IMG/VR virus record: IMGVR_UViG_3300033073_000243
Span: 1 to 64,000 of that record
Source: a virus
Taxonomy: Duplodnaviria > Caudoviricetes
Reading direction: 5' to 3' (one strand)
Length of the DNA: 64,000 nt
The translations under genes and the position numbers were made by a program. The notes under the pieces were generated by a model. The model worked only from the letters and a program-made list of their open reading frames with translations, searched no databases and was not told the DNA's origin. Within the stretch, counting starts at the first letter, position 1. Every line of letters begins with the position of its first letter. Below are positions 1,508-17,470 of this stretch, piece after piece.

Positions 1508-2254
1508 ATGATTTTATTAGAAGGTGGTAATGTATTTGCCAATGCCACGCCATTCGATCATAAAGATGTACCTGCTATACTGAACACAGTGAATTCAGCT
1601 TTAGAAGGTACTGGTATTACTGTTATACCGGTCGGTAGTGCCGCAAGTCCACGCCCTGGTAAGAAAAGCGGCGACATGGATGTATTAGCAGACGAAGCTT
1701 CTGTAATGAGTTTCTTCAAAGCTAAAGATGCCAAAACTGCTCGCAAAGCATTAAATGATTATATACATGCCAAAGGTTTAGAAACAGCACAAACGGGCAT
1801 CAATGTGCATGTTAATGTTCCGGTAGGCGGAGAACATCATCAAGTTGATATTATGGTAACTGCCAACGCAGGTCAAGTTGCTAAATTCCATACACATAAT
1901 ATTCCACAAGGTAGCCCTTACAAAGGTGTAAACAAACAATTACTAATGGCTTTCTTAGCCAAGGATAAAGGTTATATGTGGTCTGCATGGCAAGGATTAT
2001 TTGCTCGTGATGCTAACGGCAAGAAAGCAGACTTTGTAACAGATGATTTAGATAAAATTGCAGGCATTTTAGTTGGTAAAGAAGATGCTAGTGTATTAGG
2101 TAGCGTTGAAAGTATACTAGCTGCATTACCGCCAGATCAAGCAAAAGAATTATTAGCTCGTGGTAAGGCAGATCCTAATTGGAAAGAAGTATCGCAAGAA
2201 AGTTATCGCGTCGGGACAAACGAATGGTTCCGTAATATGTTGAACAAGTTATGA
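1508..2254 (+). CDS. Pol-beta-superfamily nucleotidyltransferase-like protein
   Basis: VGSAASPRPGKKSGDMDV fits the GS...SGD.D NTase signature, with a later third Asp (HHQVDIM). Confidence 0.55.
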   Translation: MILLEGGNVFANATPFDHKDVPAILNTVNSALEGTGITVIPVGSAASPRPGKKSGDMDVLADEASVMSFFKAKDAKTARKALNDYIHAKGLETAQTGINVHVNVPVGGEHHQVDIMVTANAGQVAKFHTHNIPQGSPYKGVNKQLLMAFLAKDKGYMWSAWQGLFARDANGKKADFVTDDLDKIAGILVGKEDASVLGSVESILAALPPDQAKELLARGKADPNWKEVSQESYRVGTNEWFRNMLNKL

Positions 2255-3117
2255 AAATAAACGAATTCCAATTAGACGAAATCGAACGCCTACGCCCAAG
2301 TGGATTTGAAGGCGGCAAAGAACATTTGAGTGGAGAATACGCAGCCGGTAAAATAGTTAAAAAGTTACCAGGCGGTAGTGGACTGTTATATTCCATTCAG
2401 AATGACAGCGGTGATATCAAGATTAGATTGTGGGATCCAAACAAAGGGGAATACCAACCTACACAAGAACCCAAGAAACAATCATGGCATAATAATAGAG
2501 AACATCAACAAAGAATTAGATGGTGGGAAGAAAGAAACGAAAGACTTAAGGCTGAGTTTGAAAAAGCTCCTGGCAAATTAATAGGCGAGTTAAATGTCGG
2601 CAAACCCTATGGTTTTCCACTAAAAAATGCGTTACAAGTTAACACTATCACTGTAGATGAAGATTACCGCGGTGTAGGTCTCGGTAAAGCATTGTATGGC
2701 ATTGTTCTTACTATCCTAAAGCGACCATTACTTGCGGGTTCTAGTCAAACACCCGGTGGTAGAAGAAATTGGGTAAGCCTAGCAAGTATTCCTGGTGTAG
2801 AAATGAAGGGTTATATTGCTGTAGACGACCTTGATTTGCAATCTATGGACACGAGTAAACTGGATCGTCGATATGATGATATAGCTTGGGTAAAGAGAAC
2901 TAACAAACAAGTAGAACAGAGAATCGATACTATCATGGGCAAGCTCGGTGGACAGTATATAGGCAGGGCCGATAATCGAGAATTTTTTGCCTTCGATGTT
3001 AGGCCCGATACAACAAAACAAGAATTGAAAGCACATGTAGATACTACTTTAACTAAAGTGTATGGTAGCTATAACTCCAGCGTTGGTTTATACGCAACTT
3101 GGACGGGACAAGCATGA
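2251..3117 (+). CDS. GNAT-family acetyltransferase with CTS-like leader
   Basis: QVNTITVDEDYRGVGLGKALYG is the acetyl-CoA-binding motif A (V...YRGxGxG); ATGA overlap with the upstream gene. Confidence 0.7.
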   Translation: MKINEFQLDEIERLRPSGFEGGKEHLSGEYAAGKIVKKLPGGSGLLYSIQNDSGDIKIRLWDPNKGEYQPTQEPKKQSWHNNREHQQRIRWWEERNERLKAEFEKAPGKLIGELNVGKPYGFPLKNALQVNTITVDEDYRGVGLGKALYGIVLTILKRPLLAGSSQTPGGRRNWVSLASIPGVEMKGYIAVDDLDLQSMDTSKLDRRYDDIAWVKRTNKQVEQRIDTIMGKLGGQYIGRADNREFFAFDVRPDTTKQELKAHVDTTLTKVYGSYNSSVGLYATWTGQA

Positions 3118-3662
3118 AAATAGTAGAATTATTAGAGGACGTCAAACAAGCATTGCATTTTGCCACACAGGCACATGCAGGGCAAACTCGTAGCGGTGGC
3201 GAGCCATACATCGGCCACCCTGTTAGAGTTGCACAGACTATTCGAAAATATAAACAGAGTCACAACATTGATGCCTTAATAGCTGCCGCTTACTTACATG
3301 ATACCATAGAAGATACAGACACTACCCATGAAGCATTGCATGACTTGTTTGGCGGATTGGTTGCTAGTCTGGTATTGGAACTTACTAGCGACTTAGAAGA
3401 AATTAAAAAAGTTGGTAAGAAAGAATACCTTGCTAAGAAGATGGCACACGATATGAGCAGCTATGGATTGGTTATTAAATTAGCAGACAGATTAGACAAT
3501 GTACAAGATATTGCAACTGCTAAGTCACCAGAATGGCGAGCACGATACAAAGCAGAAACAGAACATATACTCGACTATATTGAAAAGCATAGAGTGCTAT
3601 CTGGTACGCATCAACGTCTAATCGGTTTAATAAGAGATAAGTTAAACGAGATACCGGCATGA
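3114..3662 (+). CDS. RelA/SpoT-type HD hydrolase (small alarmone hydrolase, Mesh1-like)
   Basis: AHAGQTRSGGEPYIGHP, AAYLHDTIEDT, LELT and KLADRLDN motifs are all intact; true start is ATG 3114 (ATGA overlap). Confidence 0.85.
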   Translation: MKIVELLEDVKQALHFATQAHAGQTRSGGEPYIGHPVRVAQTIRKYKQSHNIDALIAAAYLHDTIEDTDTTHEALHDLFGGLVASLVLELTSDLEEIKKVGKKEYLAKKMAHDMSSYGLVIKLADRLDNVQDIATAKSPEWRARYKAETEHILDYIEKHRVLSGTHQRLIGLIRDKLNEIPA

Positions 3663-4213
3663 GATACTTAGAGATTATACAAGAATTCCAACTCCCAAAA
3701 AATTCGTGGGAGTTACTCATTTCCAATGCCGATAAAGAAGAGGCCGGAGATGAGCTTGTAAATCTCGTACAAACCGCGTATACTAATACACCTGACGGAA
3801 GTTTTGTTAATAGTATCCGTGATGTTATTCCTAGCGATTGGAATGTTATCGATTGGGATCAAGATCCTGATGTAGATAGTTGTGTATTTTACAGAAAAGC
3901 AAGAAACAACGAATCGTGGGTTGGATATAAAATACAAGGTATTGGACATGATGGTACAAAAACAAGTAAAGATAAAGCTATTACTAAAGTTCAATCAATG
4001 TTAACAAAGCCAGGCGTATGGATAGAATCTAGTGATGCTATGCGTCACATACTTAAGAAATTAAATGTTCCTTCGGTAGAAGATTTAAAAACATTACAGG
4101 CATTATTCAACGATCCTTTCTTAGAAAAATTTGATAATGACACTTACGACAGGCGTCTACCTAGCGGCAAAGTCGTAAGGGAAACAGTATTTGGGAATCC
4201 TAAACTAAAATGA
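3659..4213 (+). CDS. Hypothetical protein with CTS-like leader
   Basis: Coupled ORF (ATGA overlaps at both ends), starts MRYLEIIQE; no family recognised. Confidence 0.75.
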   Translation: MRYLEIIQEFQLPKNSWELLISNADKEEAGDELVNLVQTAYTNTPDGSFVNSIRDVIPSDWNVIDWDQDPDVDSCVFYRKARNNESWVGYKIQGIGHDGTKTSKDKAITKVQSMLTKPGVWIESSDAMRHILKKLNVPSVEDLKTLQALFNDPFLEKFDNDTYDRRLPSGKVVRETVFGNPKLK

Positions 4214-5349
4214 GATTACTAGAATTAAAAGAAGCCGCAGATCCTAAACTAGGTCGTGCATTTAACCACTTAGAGGATTTAGTTTTCTTCTATGGTACTA
4301 AGGGCACGATCGAAGCTCTTGAGCATTTAAAAGATATGAACACTGAGCAAGGCAGCGGTAGTGTTCGTATGAAATGGGACGGCAATCCTCAAATCTATTG
4401 GGGCAGAGAAAACGGACAAATCATTCCTCCACACGGACATGCTCAGTGGGGTCGTGCTAATTTGCCACAAACAGGCAAAGATGTAGCAGACTACATTATG
4501 GCAACAGGCAAAGCAACTACTCCAGAAGAGATTGCAAGTCGTCAACAGTTTGCAGACAAGTTTGCAAGTCTTGCAGATTTATTTGCAGCCGCAACTCCAG
4601 AAACATTAGATGGTAACAGTACATATTATGTCTATGCTGATGCATTATTTTTAAACAAACCAGAACTAGTAGATGGCGTTTACACATTCTGTCCTAACCC
4701 TAAAAGTCAAACTTGCTATCATGTAAAAGCTGATAGTGAATTAGGAGAACGCATCAAACATGCCGAAGTTATGGTTGTTGGTCATGCTTATTTTACAGCA
4801 CACGGACAGCCCGACAGCGCCCAGATTCCTATTAAAGACTTTAGTCAGTTTAACACAAACCCTAAACTAATTGTACTCGGTCCTATCTATAATGTTGCAC
4901 CTGTTGCTATAGATACAACAATGATAGATCAAGTCGAGGAACATATTAAACGTCATGCTCATAATGTTGATACTTTCTTAAATGGTACGGCAGGATTAAG
5001 TGACTTAAAACAAATCATATACACTTATGTCAATCAAAGTGCTAAGGCAAAACAGTTAGATAGTTTAAGTGCAGATCATTTCTTCCAATGGGCGGCGACA
5101 AAAGTCTCTGTGCCAAAGCAGGAGAAAATAAAACAGTTAAATAGTATGAACAACAATGCGTTGGAAGAGATATTTAAAATTGTAAGAGCGATTCAAATAT
5201 TAAAAGACAATGTCATTGACCAGATCGAAGCAGGACCTAAAGCAGACATTTGGGACACACATGGAGAAGGTCGTGTGCGTTATGCAGATACAAATAAACA
5301 ATTCGGTAATGTTAAGTTCGTTCCGAGAAAGCGTTGGACACCACAATGA
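4210..5349 (+). CDS. DUF6267-like protein (ligase-type KxDG nucleotidyltransferase fold)
   Basis: NHLEDLV...MKWDGNPQIYWG resembles the T4-like phage family found beside cytidylyltransferases; KWDG matches ligase motif I. Confidence 0.55.
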   Translation: MRLLELKEAADPKLGRAFNHLEDLVFFYGTKGTIEALEHLKDMNTEQGSGSVRMKWDGNPQIYWGRENGQIIPPHGHAQWGRANLPQTGKDVADYIMATGKATTPEEIASRQQFADKFASLADLFAAATPETLDGNSTYYVYADALFLNKPELVDGVYTFCPNPKSQTCYHVKADSELGERIKHAEVMVVGHAYFTAHGQPDSAQIPIKDFSQFNTNPKLIVLGPIYNVAPVAIDTTMIDQVEEHIKRHAHNVDTFLNGTAGLSDLKQIIYTYVNQSAKAKQLDSLSADHFFQWAATKVSVPKQEKIKQLNSMNNNALEEIFKIVRAIQILKDNVIDQIEAGPKADIWDTHGEGRVRYADTNKQFGNVKFVPRKRWTPQ

Positions 5350-6485
5350 AAATTAGACAATTATTAAAAGAAGCCGCTGGCGTTACTGCCGCATTTGCAT
5401 TTGGTCGTTTTAATCCAGCTCATCAAGGTCATATTGCCGTTTGGAAAACAGTTCAGAACGCAGGTGTTAAATGGTACATTGGTACTAACCCAACAACACA
5501 CGGACCAAATGACCCACTAACATTCGATCAGAAAACAGCGTGGATGGAAGCAATCTATCCTGCTATTGCCGGACATATTGAACCTGCTAACAGTGTTTTA
5601 TTTTTAGCCGCAAAGATTTATCAAGACTTGGGCGGTAATCAAGACTCTACAGTAGCTTATATTACAGATGAAACAGACTGGGCGTGGAGTGGTAAACTAT
5701 TAAATCAATACAATGGTGTTGAAGGTGCTCATGGATTCTATAAGTTTTCACAAATCGTTCATGTGCCTAGTCCACGAGTAAGTAGTGCAACAGCATTGCG
5801 TGATGCGGCTCGTGCAGATGACAAAGTTGCTTTCTATCATGCTAGCGGTACTGATCCTAAATTAAAAATTGCAGGTAAAACTTATTTTGATACTGTGCGT
5901 GAAGCTTGTTTAGGTGCAGATGCAAACAAAGCATCTAAGCGTAAACCTAAAGCAGAAAGCGTAGAAGAAGCAAGTCTTGCAACTATGCGTGATTATTTTG
6001 CAGGAAATAAAAATGCGGAAGATGAATTAAAGATAACTCAAATTCGTAAGCATTACGAAAAAGAAATTCCCCCAAATTCTAAAATTCAGAAAAAAGAATT
6101 CAGAAGCCATCATGACTATGACAAATGGTTAGAAAAGAATGGTTTAAGTAAAGTCGGTGGTAATCTAAAAGAGGTGGCTCCTCCTGGTATGGAACAATGG
6201 ATTAAAGATCGTAAGTCTGAGTTTAAAAAGCGTTACGGTGATCGTTGGCAAGAAGTTCTGTATGCCACAGCGTGGAAACAACATAACAACGAAAGCGTAG
6301 AAGGTATCGAAAATCAATCGTCAGAAGAGCTTTTAGAATACTTACGCAAGATACATAAGCGATGGGCCTTAGTAAGTAAAGGCGAAGGTAAACCTTTAGT
6401 TTATTACAAAGGCGAAGGTAAACCAAGTAAAGAATGGGTCAAGAAGCAAGAGCGTCGTATAGGTTACTTTAAACACAAAAAATGA
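5346..6485 (+). CDS. HxGH cytidylyl/adenylyltransferase-like domain plus C-terminal small modules
   Basis: FGRFNPAHQGH (HxGH) and RVSSATALR motifs; C-terminal third is split by SVEEA, LKEVA and SVEGI; true start 5346. Confidence 0.7.
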   Translation: MKIRQLLKEAAGVTAAFAFGRFNPAHQGHIAVWKTVQNAGVKWYIGTNPTTHGPNDPLTFDQKTAWMEAIYPAIAGHIEPANSVLFLAAKIYQDLGGNQDSTVAYITDETDWAWSGKLLNQYNGVEGAHGFYKFSQIVHVPSPRVSSATALRDAARADDKVAFYHASGTDPKLKIAGKTYFDTVREACLGADANKASKRKPKAESVEEASLATMRDYFAGNKNAEDELKITQIRKHYEKEIPPNSKIQKKEFRSHHDYDKWLEKNGLSKVGGNLKEVAPPGMEQWIKDRKSEFKKRYGDRWQEVLYATAWKQHNNESVEGIENQSSEELLEYLRKIHKRWALVSKGEGKPLVYYKGEGKPSKEWVKKQERRIGYFKHKK

Positions 6486-8695
6486 AATACAAAGAAATAT
6501 TTGAACAAATCATCAACGAAATTAATATGAGTCCGGCTGGTCTTCGTAGTCTAGTGGCCGATATTAATGCTCAAGCAGGTATGGAATTTGAAATGATTGT
6601 TCCGGGTGCGGCGGAAAGTGCCAGCAGTGATGATTACTTAGAACCAGATTACGATTCTAACGAAAGTACTCGCAGCTTTAGACAAATTCGCGATTTCTTC
6701 CATGATGGTGATTACAATGGACGCAGAGATGTAGAACGCTTGGAACAACGACTACTAGACGATTATATGGACAGCGATTTCTTAAGTGAAAAGAAACAAG
6801 AAGCATGGGGAGAAGCTTCCTATGATGCTGTTAGAGATTTAGTTGACAGAGATTATGCAGACGACTTGAGAGATCAAGCAACTGACGAAATTTCTGCTAA
6901 GACGCCAGAATTTGGTGTTAACGGTGATGAGTTCCAAGAAGCAGTTTTAGAGCGTTACAATGAATTAGTTCAGGAAAAAATTGACGACATTCTAGCTAAC
7001 ATGGGTAGCGAGTATGATGAAGCTTATGAGGAATGGGAACAAAACGAATGGCAAGATATATGGAATGACTTCGACTTACAAGAAGAATGGCTAGAACATG
7101 AAGGTCTAGAAACTATGAGTGATGTTGCCGATAATTACGATATCACATGGCCTTACTATTACAATCCAAACGATGGCGGCGGAGAAGTCAGTGTAGACGA
7201 TGCGGCAGACAGTTTTAGTCGTGCTATGGGTAAGCCAGTAAATGCCAGTTCCAGTTATCATGGTGCTCGCAGAGAAGCAGGGCATTATGTTGTAGAACCC
7301 GACGGCAGTTTAGAAGCAGACGATGATGAAGACGGTGGTTTAGAGTTTGTTAGTCCGCCTATGCCCATCAATGAGTTACTTGACGACCTAAAGAAAGTTA
7401 AAGCATGGGCAGACAAAACCGGATGCTATACAAATGACAGCACAGGTTTGCATATTAACGTCAGCGTTCCTGGATGGCAAGGCGATGTTGCTAAATTAGA
7501 CTATGTTAAACTTGCAATATTATTAGGCGACGAATATATCTTAAACGAATTCGGTCGCCAAGGTAATACATATTGTAAGAGTGCTTTGAAGATTGTCAAA
7601 GACAATATTACACAACGTCCAGAAGATGTAAAGCTATTACTAGATAAAATGCGTGAACATTTAAACACAAGCGCATCTAAATTGATACATAGCGGTGCCA
7701 CAAGCAAGTATACAAGTATCAATACCAAGACAGGTTACATTGAATTCCGCAGTCCAGGCGGCGATTGGTTAAACGAAAACTTTGACAAAATTGAAAATAC
7801 GCTTTATCGTTTTGTTGTTGCTATGGATGCTGCCGTAGATGAAACAAAATACAAACAAGAATATGCCAAGAAACTTTATAAGCTATTGTCTGGTAATGAG
7901 AAAGACAACACAAACACATTAACTTATTTTGCACAATATGCCGCAGGAGAATTACCACAAAGCGCATTAAAGAGTTTTATTAAACAGGCACAATTAGAGC
8001 GTAAAGTAAAGAAAGATCCAACAAGTGGACAGAAATATTGGTGGAGTGTTGGGCTAAGGTCTAATCCAAATTACAGAATTGAAGTAGTTGGTGCTAGTAA
8101 GGCGGAAGCCATTTCTGCCGCTATGGACAGTAACACCGATTTAATGAGATATAACGCTGACACCGACTTTACTGCAAAACCAATTCGTCCATTTGATGAT
8201 AGCTCAGTAAAGGCTACAGTAGGTGAACCACAACCTGCAGGTGGTTATAGGAACGCACTAAGTCAAACTGACATAGAAAATAGATTAGGTTGGGGTGGTC
8301 AAGAGGCAGATGCCAACTACGAAGTTGTAGATCGTAGCAATAATCGATCTGTATTTAAATTTATTGCTAATACTCCGCAAGAAGCACAGAGAAAATATGG
8401 ACAGGTTCTCGATGTATTTGGATTCCCGCATGATACAGAGAACTATGGCTTTAGGGAAATTGCTTTACCAGGGTCAACATTAGATTTACAACGTCAAAGA
8501 GTTGCCGCGGGTGATTTTACGGGCCAATGGAAAGTAATGATTGACGGCGAGGAAGTATACAGATTTGGTGGCGCCGGTAACAGCCAAGGCGATGCTAACA
8601 GAATCGCCCGAGAATGGATCAGACAACAAATATCAAGAGGAACTCTAAACCCAGCAGATAATGCAGATATAACTGTTGTACCAGTAATGAATTGA
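6482..8695 (+). CDS. Putative amidoligase (COOH-NH2 ligase type 2) with acidic insertion
   Basis: GMEFEM, GLEFVSPP, TNDSTGLHINVS, KYTSIN and IEFRSPGG are the conserved amidoligase-2 motifs; long D/E-rich insert. Confidence 0.7.
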   Translation: MKYKEIFEQIINEINMSPAGLRSLVADINAQAGMEFEMIVPGAAESASSDDYLEPDYDSNESTRSFRQIRDFFHDGDYNGRRDVERLEQRLLDDYMDSDFLSEKKQEAWGEASYDAVRDLVDRDYADDLRDQATDEISAKTPEFGVNGDEFQEAVLERYNELVQEKIDDILANMGSEYDEAYEEWEQNEWQDIWNDFDLQEEWLEHEGLETMSDVADNYDITWPYYYNPNDGGGEVSVDDAADSFSRAMGKPVNASSSYHGARREAGHYVVEPDGSLEADDDEDGGLEFVSPPMPINELLDDLKKVKAWADKTGCYTNDSTGLHINVSVPGWQGDVAKLDYVKLAILLGDEYILNEFGRQGNTYCKSALKIVKDNITQRPEDVKLLLDKMREHLNTSASKLIHSGATSKYTSINTKTGYIEFRSPGGDWLNENFDKIENTLYRFVVAMDAAVDETKYKQEYAKKLYKLLSGNEKDNTNTLTYFAQYAAGELPQSALKSFIKQAQLERKVKKDPTSGQKYWWSVGLRSNPNYRIEVVGASKAEAISAAMDSNTDLMRYNADTDFTAKPIRPFDDSSVKATVGEPQPAGGYRNALSQTDIENRLGWGGQEADANYEVVDRSNNRSVFKFIANTPQEAQRKYGQVLDVFGFPHDTENYGFREIALPGSTLDLQRQRVAAGDFTGQWKVMIDGEEVYRFGGAGNSQGDANRIAREWIRQQISRGTLNPADNADITVVPVMN

Positions 8696-8705
8696 GGATA
8701 ATACA

Positions 8706-8882
8706 ATGAGATTAAATGAATTAACAACAGACAAGTTAGCAAAATATAAAACGGCAGCGGCTGCTGATGCAAGTGCTGCTGATAAAGAAGGCGACTACAA
8801 ACGCGGCGATAAGCGTTTTAGTGGAATTATAAAAGCAACAAAAAAACAATTCGACAATGATGCTAAAAAGAATAAATCTTAA
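8706..8882 (+). CDS. 58-aa protein with CTS-like leader (not in ORF track)
   Basis: GAGGA RBS; MRLNELTTDKLAKYKTAAAADASAADKEGDYKRGDKRFSGIIKATKKQFDNDAKKNKS*. Confidence 0.8.
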   Translation: MRLNELTTDKLAKYKTAAAADASAADKEGDYKRGDKRFSGIIKATKKQFDNDAKKNKS

Positions 8883-9054
8883 ACGAGTATTTGTATTAAT
8901 TGCAACTCATGCGGCAGTATTTGCCGTTGGTGTTTACTATGGGTTAGAAGTATATGAAGCCTACATTAATGACCAATTTATTGTAGTGCCTAACGATGTT
9001 AACCGACAAGCACCATTTAAAGAATTTAAAGGTACAAAATATACAACGGTATGA
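8857..9054 (+). CDS. Possible small membrane protein
   Basis: One hydrophobic helix (VFVLIATHAAVFAVGVYYGL) and an ATGA overlap with the GH19 gene, but it overlaps the upstream ORF by 26 nt. Confidence 0.35.
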   Translation: MMLKRINLKRVFVLIATHAAVFAVGVYYGLEVYEAYINDQFIVVPNDVNRQAPFKEFKGTKYTTV

Positions 9055-9737
9055 AAGTTTCCGAGATAATATTAGAACAAGAATTAGATGAAGGTTGGAA
9101 AGACTGGGTAGCAGGCGCGGCTATGGGCGCAGCCGCATTAGGAGCAACTCCTGCAACTGCTAAACCAATGCCAATGCCAACGCAACAAGTATCTCAACAA
9201 TCATACAGTCCAGAAGAAAATAAAATTATTAAAACGATTTTACATCCTGCTGCCAAAATTTTAATTAAAACAGCTCGCGAAGCAGGATTAAATGGTGCAG
9301 AGCTTGCACAGTTTGTAGCTCAATGTGCTCATGAAACTTCTAACTTTACAAGCTTGAAAGAGTTCGGAGGTAAGTTAGATTTTAAAAAATATGACCCTGT
9401 ACACAATCCTCGCAAAGCAAAAATATTAGGTAACAAGAAAGCAGGCGATGGTGCTCGCTATCATGGCCGAGGATATATTCAACTAACAGGCCGAGACAAT
9501 TATAAAAGGGCAGGAGAAGCGTTAGGACTTCCGTTGGAAAAGCATCCTGAACTTGTAGAGAAACCCGAAGTGGCTGCTAAGGTTGCAGTTTGGTTTTGGA
9601 AGAATCAAGTTAAACCAAAAGTAAATAACTTCCAAGATACTGCACAAGTCACAAAACCAATTAATAGCGGATTGAAGGGTCTAGAAGACAGACATAACAA
9701 ATTTGCAGCCATTATGAATTTATTAAGGAGAAGCTAA
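9051..9737 (+). CDS. GH19 chitinase/endolysin-like peptidoglycan hydrolase
   Basis: AQFVAQCAHETSNF, YHGRGYIQLTGRDNY, AVWFW and INSGLKGLEDR are GH19 phage lysin motifs. Confidence 0.85.
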   Translation: MKVSEIILEQELDEGWKDWVAGAAMGAAALGATPATAKPMPMPTQQVSQQSYSPEENKIIKTILHPAAKILIKTAREAGLNGAELAQFVAQCAHETSNFTSLKEFGGKLDFKKYDPVHNPRKAKILGNKKAGDGARYHGRGYIQLTGRDNYKRAGEALGLPLEKHPELVEKPEVAAKVAVWFWKNQVKPKVNNFQDTAQVTKPINSGLKGLEDRHNKFAAIMNLLRRS

Positions 9738-9931
9738 TGAGAGTAAAAGACATTGTAGACGAAGCGGGCTTTTCCTATAAAGGATATCCTTGTACTAAAG
9801 ATTGCAGTGGACATATGGCAGGATATGCATGGGCAGACGATAGAGATATCAGCGACGAAGATGAATGCCCGTATCGTCCTACACACCCAAGCTTCTGGGA
9901 AGGCTGTAAGAGTAAAGCAGAAGGTAAATAA
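9737..9931 (+). CDS. Small Cys-containing protein with CTS-like leader
   Basis: MRVKDIVDE leader then CTKDCSGHMAGYAWA...C...SFWEGC; TAATG coupling. Confidence 0.75.
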   Translation: MRVKDIVDEAGFSYKGYPCTKDCSGHMAGYAWADDRDISDEDECPYRPTHPSFWEGCKSKAEGK

Positions 9932-9937
9932 TTTATT

Positions 9938-11284
9938 ATGCGTTTATTAGAATTAAAATCACTTGCCGAAGCCGCACTTACTGCTGGCGAAATCACTACA
10001 TACCCTTGGAGACAAGAGCTATTCATCAATAAGATTAGAAACGGAGAGCCTTTTGAATTAACCACAGGGGAAGAAGTAACTATTGATCCTGCTGAAGCAG
10101 ACCGCTTACAAGGTATGCTGGACTCTGGTACATTCGGAGGGACTGTTAAAATTGCATTAGACGACGGTACTATGCTATCCCTAGGCAAGCTACAAAAAAC
10201 TGTGGAGTTCCAAAAAGAAGGTGGTGTTAAAGGCGAAGGCGTTTCTAATAAAGGTGACATTTCCGAAGGTATCTTATCTGCTGCATTGTTTGCTAAACTT
10301 AAAGCTCGTGTCAACAAACAAATTGGCACAGTAACTCCTGATGACATTTGGTCTGTTGTTGACAGTTTAACTAAAACAGGCAAAAACACATACACAGTTA
10401 ATGTAAAAGACGGCAAGTCTATGGTCAATGATAGTATTGTCTTTACATTAATCTTACCTCCAGAAGCTTATAGAGATTTCATCGATCCTACAAAGCGTCC
10501 ATTATTAAAAGATCAAACAGACAGTGCCGCATTGTTTGCCAACAGCGAAGACAACGAAGAATTTAGTAAGTATTTCTATCTAAACGGACGTCCTGATATT
10601 ATTAATATCATTTGCGATGGCGGTAATCCAGAGAAACAAAAGATCAGTAAGGTCGATATTGAAGTTGTTATTACAGATAAATTAACAGGTAAAGTTGATC
10701 GTCGTCGTTTAGATATTAGCTTAAAAGTTGATGCCGCACAGTTCGGCCAAGTTGGTGTTGGTAGTACTAAAGACTATGACTTCTTTGAAAAGCAAGTTTC
10801 TTTATGGAATAAGTTTGGTGTTGATGTTCGCCCTTCTCAAGAAGGTTTTGACGAAGCATACAAAAAAGGCGGATTAGTTGATGCGTTAGCTTACATATAC
10901 GAATTTGCTGCCGATGTTATTGCTACTTTATTAGCCGATGATAATAGCGAAGATGAATATATGTTTATTACAGAACTAGCAAAGGGTATTAACTACTATG
11001 CTACTTTAGGTAATCCAAACATTATCCTATTAGACTTCTCGTCAGGAGGGTATAAGATGATGCGTTTTGACGATATCGAAGGCAAGCTAAAAGGCATTAA
11101 GCTAACAGCGTCTTATAACTATGACACTAAGTTACCTCAAGTTGACATTTATGATGCTAATACAGGTAAGTTGTTTGTTAAAGTCCGTGTAAAGATTACA
11201 GCCAAAGAACGCCGTAATTATATCGAAAAAGGCCCATTAATGACTGAACTATTGGGTACTAAGGTCAAGCGATTGAAAAAATAA
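9938..11284 (+). CDS. Possible PD-(D/E)xK nuclease-fold protein with CTS-like leader
   Basis: KGDISEG (helix Glu), KVDIEV and DISLK fit a restriction-endonuclease-like core; weak by-eye match. Confidence 0.4.
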   Translation: MRLLELKSLAEAALTAGEITTYPWRQELFINKIRNGEPFELTTGEEVTIDPAEADRLQGMLDSGTFGGTVKIALDDGTMLSLGKLQKTVEFQKEGGVKGEGVSNKGDISEGILSAALFAKLKARVNKQIGTVTPDDIWSVVDSLTKTGKNTYTVNVKDGKSMVNDSIVFTLILPPEAYRDFIDPTKRPLLKDQTDSAALFANSEDNEEFSKYFYLNGRPDIINIICDGGNPEKQKISKVDIEVVITDKLTGKVDRRRLDISLKVDAAQFGQVGVGSTKDYDFFEKQVSLWNKFGVDVRPSQEGFDEAYKKGGLVDALAYIYEFAADVIATLLADDNSEDEYMFITELAKGINYYATLGNPNIILLDFSSGGYKMMRFDDIEGKLKGIKLTASYNYDTKLPQVDIYDANTGKLFVKVRVKITAKERRNYIEKGPLMTELLGTKVKRLKK

Positions 11285-11311
11285 ATCGACATAAATTCGA
11301 TAAATAACATT

Positions 11312-11509
11312 ATGAAAATTAAAGAACTTATTAGTGAAGATGCAAGTATAGGCGGTATTAGTTCCGGCGGTTTTGCTACAGCACCTGCGGGTAATATTTT
11401 TGCCGTTCCTATGAAACGCAACCAGCCGCGCAAGCGTCCTAAAAAAGAACAAAACGAATTCGCTAATAGGCGTGATAATAAGAATGTTATCGAACAGGAT
11501 TTAAAATGA
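11312..11509 (+). CDS. Small protein with CTS-like leader
   Basis: MKIKELISEDASIGGISSGG; TAAATA box 5 nt upstream of the ATG. Confidence 0.7.
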   Translation: MKIKELISEDASIGGISSGGFATAPAGNIFAVPMKRNQPRKRPKKEQNEFANRRDNKNVIEQDLK

Positions 11510-12333
11510 GCAAACAGAGAGCCCAACAATTATACAAGCTTGCCGATAGTTTACTTAAGGTAAATGTAGCCAGTTTATCTGAAGCACAAAAAGCAGAGCG
11601 TAACTCCATGGTTGCTCGTTTACAAGAAGAATTAAAAACTCTTAAAGGTATCAAAGAAGCTCCTGGCGACTTAGGTAGCCAAATCGTTTATCTATACAAC
11701 AATATATATGAACTAGGAGATGATGCAGTAGACCACTTATATAACAATGCTCCGTTATTTGCACAATATTGGGATCAATACGAAGGCGATTTGGATAGTA
11801 TTATCCAAGAAGTACCTCCACAACAATTACAAAAGATTTATGCAGAGTTAAACAAGGCAGCACAAGAAGAAGGTTTAACTGAAATGGATTCACAAGGCTA
11901 TACAGGAAGTCGTGATCGTAAGAGCTCGAGCAAGTATGGTAGCCGCGATGATTATGAATTAGGTCAACCAGAAACAACATTAGGTAAAGATTCTATTATG
12001 ACTGGTCATGAAGCTTCCAATCAAGCATTGGACGCTCTTAAAAATGCATTTGACGACGAATATGACGAAGTAGAAGAAACAACAGGTAAGTTCGATCGTA
12101 AGGAAATTGCTCCAGGTCGTACACAATACACTCGTAAGGATGACACTTATACAACAGATGGAAGCAGTGTTGCTGACTACAGAGTATTAGCTCCGGGTCG
12201 TTCTATTGAAGATGACAACGAGCGCGAATTCAATCCACGAGATGATGAAGAATATGAGTTGGAAGAAGCGATAAGTACAGAAGCTTACGACAGACTTAAA
12301 AAAGTTTTCGACTTTAGTAATTTTAAAGGTTAA
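11506..12333 (+). CDS. Acidic multi-module (polyprotein-like) protein
   Basis: Segments separated by IKEA, LTEM, VEET and LEEA motifs. Confidence 0.7.
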   Translation: MSKQRAQQLYKLADSLLKVNVASLSEAQKAERNSMVARLQEELKTLKGIKEAPGDLGSQIVYLYNNIYELGDDAVDHLYNNAPLFAQYWDQYEGDLDSIIQEVPPQQLQKIYAELNKAAQEEGLTEMDSQGYTGSRDRKSSSKYGSRDDYELGQPETTLGKDSIMTGHEASNQALDALKNAFDDEYDEVEETTGKFDRKEIAPGRTQYTRKDDTYTTDGSSVADYRVLAPGRSIEDDNEREFNPRDDEEYELEEAISTEAYDRLKKVFDFSNFKG

Positions 12334-12336
12334 TAT

Positions 12337-13698
12337 ATGAAATTATTTGAACTATTTGAGAGCCCAGTTATTGCTGGTGCAAATAACTTAAAAGCAATTG
12401 CACAAGCGGCAACTAGTGCCAGCGATGCACACATCACATTGGGCGGCGAACCAGTTACTTTAGAGTATCCTGAAGCTCGCTTTATCTATGGCTTATACAA
12501 GAAGTCATTGCAGTCTGGTACACAAGAACAATTCTTACAGATGTTAACTAACCCTGCAAGTTTTGATAGCTTAATGAAACCAATGCGTAATATGCTATAC
12601 AAAGATCGCGGTCCAGAAATGGCTCAGGCGGCTGCTACCCGTATCGGTCAACCTGGTGTAGAAGAAAGTATCGACAAACCAGTAACAGGTACAGAAACAA
12701 TGAAGCACTTAGTTCAGCGTTTCCCTAAAGAAGTTAAAGACTTTATCGCAGGTGGCGAACTAGACAGCGACTTATACGAAGCATTATTTGATTACTACAA
12801 CTTACATGGCGAAATGCCATATGGTGTAGCTAAAGCTCGTACAGGCGATCCGTTCGAATGGGTAACACAACAATTTGACCGTGATGCACAAGAATATGTA
12901 ACTGAAGCTAAACAAGCTTACAAAAAATTAATTACAGAAAGCAAGAAACAAGTTAGCGAGCGTTGGGATGACGACGATGATGACTGGTATGGTTTTAACG
13001 ACAAAACTCGTAAAGCTGCCACAGGCGGTACAGTCACACAAACAGGACGCGGTGTTATCCATAAAGGCAAATATGGTAGCGAATATCAAGGTGACGATGA
13101 GGAAGAAGATAAGAGCCCATTTGCTATTCTCAAGACTGCTAAAGTAAAAGAGCCTCGTAGTGCTGGCCGTCCAAGTGCTAACATTAAAGCAACAGACGAT
13201 GGCATTAGCGTAACATCTTACTCTAGCTGGTATCACAAATCTAAGCGTAGTCACCCAGAGCGTAAGATTGTTGGTAGTGCAGAACGAGCAGTTGCCGTTA
13301 TTCCAAAAGGCAAAAAGTTTGCAGTTGTCGGTTCGTGGGATGGAGCTAAAGGCTTAATCAATGCTAAGGCAGGTGAAGTTGTTACAGTTGACCAACTAAA
13401 AGATTATAAATCTGGTCGCGGACGTCCAACTACACGAAAAGAAAGTGCAAGTTATCGCAATCGTGCTTTGCGTGAATGGATCGAACAATTAGTAGTTGTT
13501 TCAGAAGGCAAGAACCATATGGGCGAAACTGAATACAATACTTACAGCGGATGGAGAGCAGCTTGTAAAAGAGCAGGTGCTAACGAATTCGACGGAGATC
13601 GTGACATTTGCCAAGCTAAGAAGGACGGCAAAGGCGTAGGTGAATGGGACGGCGTAAGTGGTTCCGTTTATGATGACGCACATAAGAAAGCACAGTAA
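12337..13698 (+). CDS. Multi-module (polyprotein-like) protein with CTS-like leader
   Basis: MKLFELFES leader; internal VEES, VTEA, ITES, VSER and VSEG sites delimit compositionally distinct segments. Confidence 0.75.
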   Translation: MKLFELFESPVIAGANNLKAIAQAATSASDAHITLGGEPVTLEYPEARFIYGLYKKSLQSGTQEQFLQMLTNPASFDSLMKPMRNMLYKDRGPEMAQAAATRIGQPGVEESIDKPVTGTETMKHLVQRFPKEVKDFIAGGELDSDLYEALFDYYNLHGEMPYGVAKARTGDPFEWVTQQFDRDAQEYVTEAKQAYKKLITESKKQVSERWDDDDDDWYGFNDKTRKAATGGTVTQTGRGVIHKGKYGSEYQGDDEEEDKSPFAILKTAKVKEPRSAGRPSANIKATDDGISVTSYSSWYHKSKRSHPERKIVGSAERAVAVIPKGKKFAVVGSWDGAKGLINAKAGEVVTVDQLKDYKSGRGRPTTRKESASYRNRALREWIEQLVVVSEGKNHMGETEYNTYSGWRAACKRAGANEFDGDRDICQAKKDGKGVGEWDGVSGSVYDDAHKKAQ

Positions 13699-16139
13699 TG
13701 CGTTTAAATCAAATAACAGAAGGCCTAGCTGACGAATTTGCAGCTATGGCAAGAGCCAAAGGCATGAATCCACGGATTCATGGTACTCCTGAACAAGAGC
13801 GTGAGCGCACACGCCAGGCTCTTGCCCAACGAGATGCAGAAAGAGCAGAAGCACAGAAACGCGATACTGAAAATGATATTGCTCAACTTCCGGAATTAAA
13901 AGCTCAATATGATAAAATGAAGAGCGAATACGAATCACTAGGCGGAAGTAACTGGCAATATGCAGATCGCGAACAAAACTTATCCGATGGAGAACGCAAG
14001 GCTCGTTCAATGGAGCCCGAGTTAAATAACCTCTGGAGAAGAATATCTCGTGCCGAAAAGGCACAAGGTGTAAGCGAAGCAGGACCAACACGTCGTGGTT
14101 TTTTACAAAGCATTGGTGCAGCAGGTTTAACTGCGGCTGGTGTTGCATCTGCTAAAGGTGGCGGCGGTGGTGGAGGTCACGGCGGTGGTGGAGGACATGC
14201 TAGCTCTGGCGGTCATGCTAGTTCAGGTGGCAAAGGAGGTGGTGGTAAAGGTGCTAGTGCAGGAGCCAGAGGAGCGATGCACGGTGAACCATCTGCTAGA
14301 TTCGTACCTGGTCAACCATATGTTCCAATAACAGGTCATCATGTTGAACAAGGTGCTGGCAACGATGCTAATAAACAAGAATACATCAAGTTCCTAACAA
14401 GTTATGCTAATGCTATTCGTGCAGGTAAGATGACTCCTGAAATGCGTAAGTGGTTGAACAACCATCCTGAAGTCATCGAGGACTTGAAGCGTGGTAAGTA
14501 TGGATTGACTATGGGTCAACTTAATGCTGACTTGGTAGACATTGAATCTCGCAAGAATTATCACATGATGCGTGAAGGTGTATCTACGACATGGGAAGTT
14601 AGTTATGATTACGGTCCACATATGACTAAGACCGTTACGGTCAAAGCTAAATCAGAAGAAGAGGCTGCGGCTAAAGTAGAAAAGGCCGCAGAGAAAAAAG
14701 GCCTCAACATAATGATAAACTCTGTAACACCAGTAGAGCAAGGTGTGGTGGAAGGCGATGATCGCGGTAATTATCACAGCATTGCTAGAGCCGCAAACCA
14801 AGCAAGTAGAACAGCAAAGTCTAAACAAGATCACGCCAAGGCTGCTGACTTACACGACCGCGCCGCGACATATGGTCTATCAGCGGGCCAAGACCAATCT
14901 GTAATTCGTGACCATCAAATGGCAGCATGGGAACACAATCGTGCTAGTAAAAAAATGAAGGAAGATGTGGCGGAGGGCATAAATGACAAACCCGAAACAG
15001 GTGACAAGATTGTTTGGTATCATAGCAATCATTATCCTAAACTTGAAGGTGAAGTTGTTGGTTGGAAAGACGGGCATCTAATTGTTAAATCAATTGACCC
15101 TAGCCCTAGAAATACAGAAAAGACCGTAGCAACATATCGTGTGCCTAAGAATAATATAATGAGTGTCGAAAAGCAAGGTGTGGCGGAAGACCAATTAGAC
15201 GAAGCCAAGATTGCTTCAACTGAAGATGAAGATTTCTTTCATAAAGGAAAGAAAGTTGGTAGCATAACAAAAATCACTCTAAAAGATGGTATGGTATTTT
15301 ACCGTGCAACCGCAGGAAATTCTCATATTTCCGGTTCAGATACCCGTCAAGAAGCATTAAGAGATTTGAAAGAACTCTTGCGTAGAGAAAAAGAGGAAGG
15401 TGTGGCGGAAGGCTCGGATAACATCACTGCTGTATTTTCTGGTTATGGAAATTATATGAAAGGTCGTGCTGCCAATGTATTCAAACATTACGGTATTACC
15501 GTATTAGACCAACAATATGATGAAGATGAAGATATCGCAGAATATACAGTTAGCGGCAGTAAAGAGGCATTGGATCAAGCAAGAGCATACTTGGAACGCA
15601 GTGACCAATTTGGTGGCATGATCCTAAAGCAAGGTGTGGAGGAGGCAGAAAATGTAAGTCATTTACACAAAGCCTTAGACCGTGCTTTGAGTAAAGAAAA
15701 GAAAGCAAGCCCTGCACAAGTTCAACGCAACAAAGAGCGTTGGGCACAGCGTCAAGCAGAAAAGAATAAAGAAGTAGACGAAGGTGTAGCAACATCAATG
15801 CCAATGCAAGATGCTGTAAAATTATTGCGTCAGTATGGTGCAGATAACTTTAAAACAACTACAAACGAATTACATTTTTATAAAAACGGTCGAGCATTTA
15901 GTGTTGATTTGGTAATGAATCCAGATACTACTCGCAGTGTAACTTTAAGCAGTTTAAATGCAGCCACTCGTGGATTAAAAGGTAACAGTGCTTTACGTCA
16001 AGCGATTGAATCCATCGATGCAAACCAAAAACGAGTAGGTCAAGTTCCAGGCGAAGAGAAAGCTAAAAAGATCGGACAAGTACTTGCTAAACCTCCTAAG
16101 CAACATCCTTTTAAGGGACGCTTAGTAGGCGGTGAATAA
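13698..16139 (+). CDS. 813-aa modular polyprotein with repeated QGVAEG-type linkers
   Basis: Linkers ITEG, QGVSEA, MREG, QGVVEG, EDVAEG, QGVAED-QLDEA, EGVAEG, QGVEEA, VDEG and AIES separate about 10 unrelated modules of 40-165 aa. Confidence 0.8.
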   Translation: MRLNQITEGLADEFAAMARAKGMNPRIHGTPEQERERTRQALAQRDAERAEAQKRDTENDIAQLPELKAQYDKMKSEYESLGGSNWQYADREQNLSDGERKARSMEPELNNLWRRISRAEKAQGVSEAGPTRRGFLQSIGAAGLTAAGVASAKGGGGGGGHGGGGGHASSGGHASSGGKGGGGKGASAGARGAMHGEPSARFVPGQPYVPITGHHVEQGAGNDANKQEYIKFLTSYANAIRAGKMTPEMRKWLNNHPEVIEDLKRGKYGLTMGQLNADLVDIESRKNYHMMREGVSTTWEVSYDYGPHMTKTVTVKAKSEEEAAAKVEKAAEKKGLNIMINSVTPVEQGVVEGDDRGNYHSIARAANQASRTAKSKQDHAKAADLHDRAATYGLSAGQDQSVIRDHQMAAWEHNRASKKMKEDVAEGINDKPETGDKIVWYHSNHYPKLEGEVVGWKDGHLIVKSIDPSPRNTEKTVATYRVPKNNIMSVEKQGVAEDQLDEAKIASTEDEDFFHKGKKVGSITKITLKDGMVFYRATAGNSHISGSDTRQEALRDLKELLRREKEEGVAEGSDNITAVFSGYGNYMKGRAANVFKHYGITVLDQQYDEDEDIAEYTVSGSKEALDQARAYLERSDQFGGMILKQGVEEAENVSHLHKALDRALSKEKKASPAQVQRNKERWAQRQAEKNKEVDEGVATSMPMQDAVKLLRQYGADNFKTTTNELHFYKNGRAFSVDLVMNPDTTRSVTLSSLNAATRGLKGNSALRQAIESIDANQKRVGQVPGEEKAKKIGQVLAKPPKQHPFKGRLVGGE
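14064..15647 (+). repeat. Dispersed in-frame 18-bp linker repeat, consensus cAAGGTGTGGcGGAaGgc (6 copies)
   Basis: 14064 caaggtgtaagcgaagca; 14739 caaggtgtggtggaaggc; 14961 gaagatgtggcggagggc; 15174 caaggtgtggcggaagac; 15396 gaaggtgtggcggaaggc; 15630 caaggtgtggaggaggca. All are in frame with ATG 13698. Confidence 0.85.
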
Positions 16140-16197: not shown

Positions 16198-16638
16198 ATG
16201 GATGAATTAATACAAGCACTGAAAAAAGTTTTAGGCAATCACTATGCGTATGCATTGAAAGCACAAAACTTTCACTGGAACGTCGAAGGACCAGACTTTA
16301 GTCAATACCACGCACTATTTGCTACAATTTATGATGAAGTATATGGCAGTGTAGATACTATCGCCGAACGAGTCAGAACGCTAGGTGCTTATGCTCCTGG
16401 TAGTTTCAGTCGTTTTGCACAACTATCTGAAATCGAAGATCAAGTTGAAGTTCCTAATGCACTATCTATGATTCAAAAACTTCTTGCAGATATAAGTATT
16501 GTACAAGCAAGTATTAAGGCATGTTATGATCTTGCCGAAATAAATGGCAATCACGGACTAAGTAATTTAATGGCGGACAGACAAGATGCATTTGCAAAAC
16601 ATGCATGGATGCTAACTGCTACATTAAAAAATAGATAA
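16198..16638 (+). CDS. dps: Dps (DNA-binding ferritin-like protein)
   Basis: KAQNFHWNVEGPDFSQYHALF...DTIAERVRTLG...KHAWML are the Dps ferroxidase signature motifs. Confidence 0.92.
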   Translation: MDELIQALKKVLGNHYAYALKAQNFHWNVEGPDFSQYHALFATIYDEVYGSVDTIAERVRTLGAYAPGSFSRFAQLSEIEDQVEVPNALSMIQKLLADISIVQASIKACYDLAEINGNHGLSNLMADRQDAFAKHAWMLTATLKNR

Positions 16639-17195: not shown

Positions 17196-17470
17196 TCTAT
17201 AATATCTTTAATTGGATCAAGGAAGACTGGGAAAGTCATCCCTTTAGATTTATCGTCGAAACTTTAGCATGGACAATGAGTATAGGTGCGGCAATTTGGT
17301 TTGCCTCATCTGTACCCGCAGTTCCTTTTATATGGTATCTAATGCTAACTATTACTAGTTGTGCTATGTATGCCTGGGCTGCTTGGTCACGCAAAAGTTT
17401 TGGTATGTTAGCAAATTATCTTTTGCTAACTACAATCGATAGCATTGGATTATTTAGGATGATTACATGA
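17192..17470 (+). CDS. Small membrane protein
   Basis: Three hydrophobic segments; TTG start overlapping the previous stop. Confidence 0.65.
   Translation: MIYNIFNWIKEDWESHPFRFIVETLAWTMSIGAAIWFASSVPAVPFIWYLMLTITSCAMYAWAAWSRKSFGMLANYLLLTTIDSIGLFRMIT

Follow-up and report, generated by a model that had tools for sequence, protein, structure and literature searches.

What is a bacterial export signal doing in the middle of a phage polyprotein? The question is raised by the 64,000-nucleotide stretch analysed here (the window), which covers the initial 64 kb of an IMG/VR fragment of 84.6 kb (IMGVR_UViG_3300033073_000243), estimated to be 22% complete, from an uncultured jumbo T4-like phage. Within a modular 813-residue open reading frame (ORF) of this window, the module that spans residues 128-293 (14079-14576, from the first base of Ala128 to the last base of Glu293) opens with a segment resembling a twin-arginine translocation (Tat) signal. 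Judging from sequence patterns, we put at roughly one in two the probability that this Tat-type signal heads a self-contained cassette, is made N-terminal by a head-protease cut after Glu127, and is then sent through the host Tat system to the periplasmic side.

Residues 123-160 comprise, in order, the linker QGVSE, the segment AGPT, the motif RRGFLQ, the stretch SIGAAGLTAAGVASA, Lys153 and a run of glycines with interspersed histidines. The twin-arginine motif, hydrophobic region and A-S-A peptidase site, which a first-pass annotation of the DNA had placed 127 residues inside the precursor, are all present there. The 15-residue stretch formed by the hydrophobic (h) and c-regions is weakly hydrophobic and runs into A-S-A/K, as is usual for Tat signals and their A-x-A site; as encoded, however, the signal begins at residue 128 of 813 rather than at the N-terminus, where such signals are normally located. 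The mean Kyte-Doolittle hydropathy of this stretch is 1.32 and its best 19-mer comes to about +5.9 kcal/mol, compared with 1.06-1.71 and +5.7 to +8.8 kcal/mol for the signal h-regions of the family, the energies being simple sums over the best 19-mer on the Hessa scale. On these sums the segment is too polar for a stable transmembrane (TM) anchor, a possibility that was rejected. A Tat-like pattern, defined as RR with F/I/L and an uncharged stretch of at least 12 residues, was matched by 16 of 20,000 composition-preserving shuffles of the 813-residue protein; since so few shuffles match and since the layout is kept in homologues, the motif in this ORF is not a chance occurrence. The same pattern found 15 matches among the six-frame ORFs of 1.1 Mb of sequence from the phage and its relatives: 11 follow a Glu-ending leader or linker at a distance of 2-4 residues, and the remaining four are short non-genic ORFs.

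A phmmer search with the cargo domain (residues 196-293) against 1.84 billion representative sequences returned 17 matches, about eight of which are true homologues, all of them inside phage polyproteins, and four IMG/VR loci supply further copies of the module. The copies compared were those of the window, P0004/L079, P0005/L076, P0007/L004, P0009/L077, P0114/L078, P0119, L001 and L003. All copies whose upstream sequence is visible share one layout, namely a Glu-ending site, 2-4 residues, RR-[GSD]-[FIL]-[LV], an Ala/Gly-rich h-region, small-x-Ala, Lys and a Gly run. In the alignment of homologous modules (A1, eight rows) the arginine pair, the Ala at -1 and the Lys at +1 are invariant, position -3 is A, T or V, and the h-region drifts in sequence yet stays Ala/Gly-rich at module identities down to 44%. 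A lack of conservation in homologues would have spoken against the RRxFL motif proposed for the window, but its arginine pair is present in all eight aligned modules and likewise in P0119, and each homologous module follows a linker-type Glu site, as had been anticipated if the signal belongs behind a cut. The upstream neighbour module differs in at least seven homologous modules, and a cassette boundary therefore lies exactly before the signal.

These data also bear on the idea that the segment has no targeting role, being either a remnant that travelled with a shuffled cassette or a flexible stretch within the capsid. In its favour are the very small size of the cargo family, with about 10 copies, the scores of the window copy, which lie below the profile cut-offs given below, and cassette shuffling, by which a linked remnant could spread; yet the arginine pair, the -1 Ala and the +1 Lys stay fixed while the h-region changes in sequence but not in character at module identities as low as 44%, and the same class of signal is kept on three types of cargo. 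We consider this the least probable of the explanations entertained here.

When ten signal segments of the family were compared with NCBIfam, the only models to match were TIGR01409 and a Tat-target model, with scores of 9.0 to 21.4 bits, and four of the ten orthologous segments (18.2-21.4 bits) exceeded the TIGR01409 cut-off of 16.7. The Pfam family TAT_signal (PF10518) matches five of the eight rows of A1 (best E 6.9e-5). That Tat signals are the only profile families to match speaks against a further explanation, in which the Ala/Gly-rich stretch serves to act on membranes: as part of an ejected protein it would insert into the inner membrane from the periplasm while the DNA is being delivered, much as the T7 or P22 ejection proteins do, and the arginine pair would be incidental positive charge. 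Many modules of the family do begin with Ala/Gly “glycine-zipper”-like segments directly after the joints between modules, and there are weak, non-significant matches to the P22 Inj_translocase (E 0.058) and to a podophage core protein (Z 5.4). These structural and Pfam matches fall below any threshold, however, and 68 contexts preserve RR-G-F-L with S/T at -1, which is more than the positive-inside rule would account for; the existence of a separate non-RR class of segment (GWKEKV...) likewise argues that the RR class is specific. A purely membrane-active role is, in our estimation, improbable.

What would place such a signal at an N-terminus? Joints of the G-V-x-E type recur in the ORF at residues 124, 349, 494, 568 and 646, together with a D-V-A-E variant at 424-427 and two degenerate joints (GVST and GVAT), and when 113 database relatives are aligned to the ORF by BLAST, their coverage changes in steps at these positions. 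GVxE was seen 437 times in the polyprotein family against 29.6 expected. Over all fetched proteins, [VILM]-x-E ends 2-5 residues before RR in 59 of 68 distinct 10-residue upstream contexts (background 7.5%), and the other nine contexts hold near variants such as AKE, TNE and IAD. Of 32 non-redundant internal hydrophobic segments, 15 start no more than 12 residues after [VIL]xE, where 5.7 would be expected (p = 1.6e-4); the set still includes unrelated polytopic proteins. Proteases of the gp21 type cut after Glu (PMC5694885), and the capsid-targeting sequence (CTS) of T4, MKTYQEFIAE (PMC8442874), is removed by gp21 (PMC3012670). A gp21-type Peptidase_S77 is encoded in all five large relatives (184-453 kb, DNA polymerase 52-84% identical), where it adjoins the scaffold and the major capsid protein (MCP); in G006 the propeptide of the MCP carries LFE, LLE, VME, VLE and IME ahead of the conserved start of the mature protein, and about 35 sites of this kind are present in the scaffold. 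The leader of the window ORF resembles in pattern, and in pattern only, the hydrophobic-x-Glu-ending leaders of T4-type internal proteins, and a start of the form M[KR]..E[LI]..E is common to 13 genes from 2251 to 16139 (e.g. MKLFELFE and MRLNQITE).

The first-pass annotation held that the signal is exposed only after cleavage of the linker. In two related loci, L076 and L001, a GWKEKV-type signal module and the RR module stand side by side, in opposite orders. An uncut chain with two consecutive N-in/C-out signals would leave the second arginine pair in the periplasm, and the presence of both orders would be workable only if the chain were cut between the signals, provided that both of them function. 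The “only” of the claim is not forced, because Rieske proteins targeted by both Sec and Tat have internal Tat motifs that work although they stay uncut (PMC3471235, PMC5449189). The second signal-bearing module (E/GWKEKVGAAALAG...K/N-TPKVPL) lies beside the Tat module at L076:6001-8115 and L001:8714-11248, and the two neighbours may be partner proteins. The accompanying suggestion that the module jams the Tat translocon found no support. No TatC is encoded in the five relatives, so that the Tat system of the host would be used.

A scan of the 1.1 Mb of related loci revealed the RR signal in three further settings. It precedes a different small cargo in P0014, on a 338-kb contig syntenic with the window; it is N-terminal, directly after the leader, on a GH19 muramidase (L004:13668-14309, MRATEFISE/DIS-RRGFLGG); and it is internal, after a GNAT module and before a GH19 muramidase, at L002:8295-9317. 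The GH19 enzyme of these relatives is one that acts in the periplasm, which favours an export role for the signal. Relatives carry GH19, HicA, GNAT and LysM modules. Among the 120 best-scoring relatives of the L004 muramidase, which served as the query, 71 possess the RR signal by a strict count (22 of them N-terminally after the leader, 49 internally) and 27 possess a non-RR segment of the GWKDWVAGA (GWK) type, like the GH19 gene of the window; a strict leader begins 54 of the 57 GH19 homologues with an internal RR signal. Since 71 of these 120 relatives carry a twin-arginine signal where the window gene has a non-RR segment, the same enzyme seems to accept Tat-type and non-Tat-type signals interchangeably, and the window gene may fit the pattern of a signal-anchor-release (SAR) endolysin better than the Tat module does.

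The GH19 relatives bring in the explanation that the signal acts in the producing cell, not the next host, and that the host Tat system there would export the new protein late in infection with the signal internal and uncut, or cut outside the capsid, so that GH19 would be a Tat-exported endolysin and the module of the window a periplasmic accessory to lysis or superinfection. In its favour, stand-alone GH19 relatives have an ordinary Tat signal at the N-terminus, with the leader as its n-region; GH19 homologues of cultured phages are annotated as endolysins, an endolysin can be exported by fusion to a Tat signal (PMC9527704), and the uncut Tat motifs of the dual-targeted proteins mentioned above (PMC3471235, PMC5449189) provide a precedent. 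Processing by gp21 in T4, however, takes place inside the assembled prohead, once the shell has closed around the core, and the same leader M[KR]..E[LI]..E also begins cytoplasmic-type enzymes of the operon (HD, nucleotidyltransferase and amidoligase), which indicates that the leader is not an export n-region. The tandem signals in both orders would need a cut between them, and the hydrophobic-x-Glu site persists although the upstream contexts are unrelated. On balance we regard export from the producing cell as unlikely.

The reading that we favour, processing in the head followed by Tat export, would proceed as follows. A T4-type leader would load the polyprotein into the prohead, and a gp21-type prohead protease would cut it at the G-V-x-E joints, after hydrophobic-x-Glu. 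Cutting after Glu127, as predicted, would expose AGPT-RRGFLQ... at a new N-terminus, equivalent to a standard Tat signal, and the released module could then be carried by the host Tat pathway to the periplasmic side, where cleavage by signal peptidase at ASA/K would make it soluble and failure to cleave would leave it tethered to the inner membrane. The Tat pathway is suited to a pre-made, ejected protein because it is post-translational. More tentatively, one may envisage a two-step address code, in which cuts by the head protease create N-terminal Tat (and Sec-like) signals and the pieces are ejected with the DNA and re-exported by the Tat system of the new host, acting on the envelope before gene expression; we consider this possible, though short of probable.

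Several observations weigh against processing in the head followed by export. The window motif T-R-R-G-F-L-Q follows the consensus (S/T)-R-R-x-F-L-K but replaces its Lys with Gln; the window copy reaches 11.6-12.1 bits against TIGR01409 (residues 131-149), below the cut-off of 16.7, and PF10518 does not match it, the window row matching only a Rieske Tat-signal model, weakly. In T4 the cut rule calls for Leu or Ile at P3, and the predicted site of the window has Val there. The joint downstream of the module is degenerate. Stand-alone GH19 relatives, where the leader can double as the n-region, have a signal that is already N-terminal and requires no cut; because of this, the tight spacing between Glu and RR could partly reflect cassette ancestry. 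A gp21-type gene was not found in the 84.6-kb contig, itself a 22%-complete fragment. A tblastn search of 50,697 cultured-phage records with the 813-residue ORF gave no match. The core of the T4 late promoter (TATAAATA) occurs once in the window against 6.7 expected from shuffles, a depletion that gives no timing; this clade may use another late promoter. Lastly, there is no obvious benefit in re-exporting a protein that has been injected.

The tract that follows the signal had been described in the first-pass annotation as part of a Gly/His-rich module, a description that does not survive comparison with homologues: the spacer is Gly-rich and basic, its histidines are not conserved, and in L079 and L004 they are replaced by arginine. 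A metal-binding role was rejected on the same grounds, and the tract is therefore a basic Gly tether and not a metal site. The cargo beyond it is net-basic and Cys-free, and cysteine is absent from the entire polyprotein (13698-16139). Outside the helical cargo the AlphaFold2 (AF2) model is of low confidence (predicted local distance difference test, pLDDT, 53.7). The cargo domain has no Pfam, PHROG or fold match: the best hits of a wide VIA-align search (Z 5.4, to the phage E1004 core protein) and of a Foldseek search of BFVD (E 0.54) are both below significance, and an ESM Atlas search (best score 0.79) was uninformative. A SAR endolysin joins a Gly/Ala-rich segment to a muralytic domain, and the cargo matches no muralytic family. 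Single modules of the ORF have no Pfam match above cut-off and the ORF as a whole has no match in PHROG. A motif of the cargo, W-L-N-x-H-P-E-V (14436-14500, residues ~247-268), is weakly like the repeats of MHB (haemophore-like) proteins that bacteria secrete (P0124-P0127). The MHB lead, which came from weak phmmer matches to secreted proteins with W-L-x-x-H-P-E-V repeats, was dropped because the cargo misses the Pfam MHB family. If we were to guess, the cargo would act as an envelope-binding helper or an exclusion factor.

How does this arrangement compare with known systems? The internal proteins of T4 (IPI, IPII, IPIII and Alt) bear a CTS that is removed by gp21 and are ejected with the DNA. 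The window ORF and its family resemble them in having a short leader ending in hydrophobic-x-Glu, a gp21-family protease by the scaffold and MCP in relatives, and small, Cys-free and often basic modules, but differ in combining many modules in one ORF with repeated internal sites and in that some modules start with bacterial export signals; membership of this group is proposed from site patterns. We know of no T4 internal protein that carries a bacterial export signal. With bacterial Tat signals (TIGR01409, PF10518), of which those of the Escherichia coli amidases AmiA and AmiC are examples, the segment shares (S/T)-R-R-x-F-L, a weakly hydrophobic h-region, A-x-A and a basic residue after the site, as well as a cell-wall hydrolase as cargo in relatives; it differs in being phage-borne, in lying 127 residues inside a precursor or after a phage leader, and in the scores of the window copy, which are below the curated ones. 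In thylakoid-lumen proteins with bipartite presequences, a Tat signal is uncovered by a stromal peptidase. This is the nearest functional analogy, given that proteolytic removal of the first targeting element leaves a Tat signal at the new N-terminus, although it is an analogy only, the system, the protease and the compartments being unrelated.

Polyvalent proteins of phages and conjugative elements are multi-domain proteins proposed to be packaged, injected and processed, in which several disparate effector domains are typically joined to MuF, portal or peptidase domains; their description (Iyer et al. 2017, PMC5512222) leaves signal peptides unmentioned and attributes processing to in-chain peptidase domains. 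Unlike these, the window ORF has no polyvalent signature domain that we could find, and no Pfam or PHROG domain in it passes threshold. The Rieske proteins targeted by both Sec and Tat (PMC3471235, PMC5449189) resemble it in carrying a twin-arginine motif away from the N-terminus; the Tat motifs of the actinobacterial examples, however, follow Sec-inserted TM helices and stay uncleaved, whereas in the phage ORF a soluble coiled-coil module that ends in a protease-type site lies upstream. In the literature consulted we found nothing that connects capsid-targeting sequences with twin-arginine signals, and a 2026 review of the Tat pathway mentions phages only for the use of SlyD by ΦX174 and in two reference titles (on the phage-shock protein PspA and the T4 antiholin RI), with no phage-encoded Tat substrate.

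Table 1. Features of the polyprotein ORF and the GH19 gene, with positions in the 64,000-nucleotide window.
Feature	Position	Strand	Basis or remark
GH19 muramidase gene, same operon; leader MKVSEIILEQELDE, then a non-RR signal or SAR-like segment GWKDWVAGAAMG...ATA/K	9051..9737	+	
Modular polyprotein ORF, about nine modules, 813 residues	13698..16139	+	Joints and steps in BLAST coverage
N-terminal leader MRLNQITE	13698..13721	+	Resembles the T4 capsid-targeting sequence
Linker QGVSE, residues 123-127, predicted cut after Glu127	14064..14078	+	GVxE excess; [VILM]xE before RR
n-region AGPT (residues 128-131) and twin-arginine motif RRGFLQ (132-137)	14079..14108	+	RR invariant; TIGR01409 match
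h- and c-region SIGAAGLTAAGVASA, residues 138-152, A-S-A before Lys153	14109..14153	+	-1 Ala and +1 Lys invariant
Gly-rich basic spacer, residues 153-200, predicted disordered	14154..14297	+	AF2 pLDDT below 50
F-x-P-G-x-P-(Y/F) motif, residues 202-210	14301..14327	+	F, P and G invariant in A1
Helical cargo domain of about 70 residues, 223-293	14364..14576	+	AF2 helices, pLDDT 70-84
Downstream joint MRE/GVST, degenerate linker with Thr in place of the expected Glu	14568..14588	+	Homologues have MRE-EGVAE or EGVDE

Elsewhere in the window, the DNA polymerase is 50% identical to that of Sinorhizobium phage Phosso, 46.5% to that of Atu_ph07 and about 44% to those of Rak2-like phages. A stand-alone gene of 58 residues with a leader (8706-8882) is homologous to an internal polyprotein module at L001:9104-9265, L004:9575-9739 and L002:5411-5575, and exemplifies the principle that a gene is equivalent to a module and a leader to a linker; in L004 and L001 this homologous module and the Tat module belong to one polyprotein, with the homologous module upstream (just upstream in L004). 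An ORF of 65 residues with one TM helix (8857-9054) overlaps the start codon of the GH19 gene by 4 nucleotides; no homologue was found in the fetched loci, and it could be a holin or antiholin candidate, or spurious. Directly 3' of the polyprotein genes and before the DNA polymerase region is a ferritin/Dps-like gene (16198-16638), and such a gene also occurs within one to three genes of the polyprotein genes in the relatives L005, L076 and L078. Directly upstream of the DNA polymerase, a 64-residue hydrophobic ORF (17276-17470) is represented in at least 12 related loci at 40-63% identity.

Each component, whether the Tat signal, the capsid-targeting leader of T4 or the gp21-type cut site, is known; it is their combination that is new. 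If the proposed reading is true, proteins delivered by the virion can bear a second address, unmasked by a protease, for an export machine of the host, and an abundant uncultured group of jumbo phages from freshwater and marine habitats would send a GH19 cell-wall hydrolase and other small proteins through the Tat pathway.

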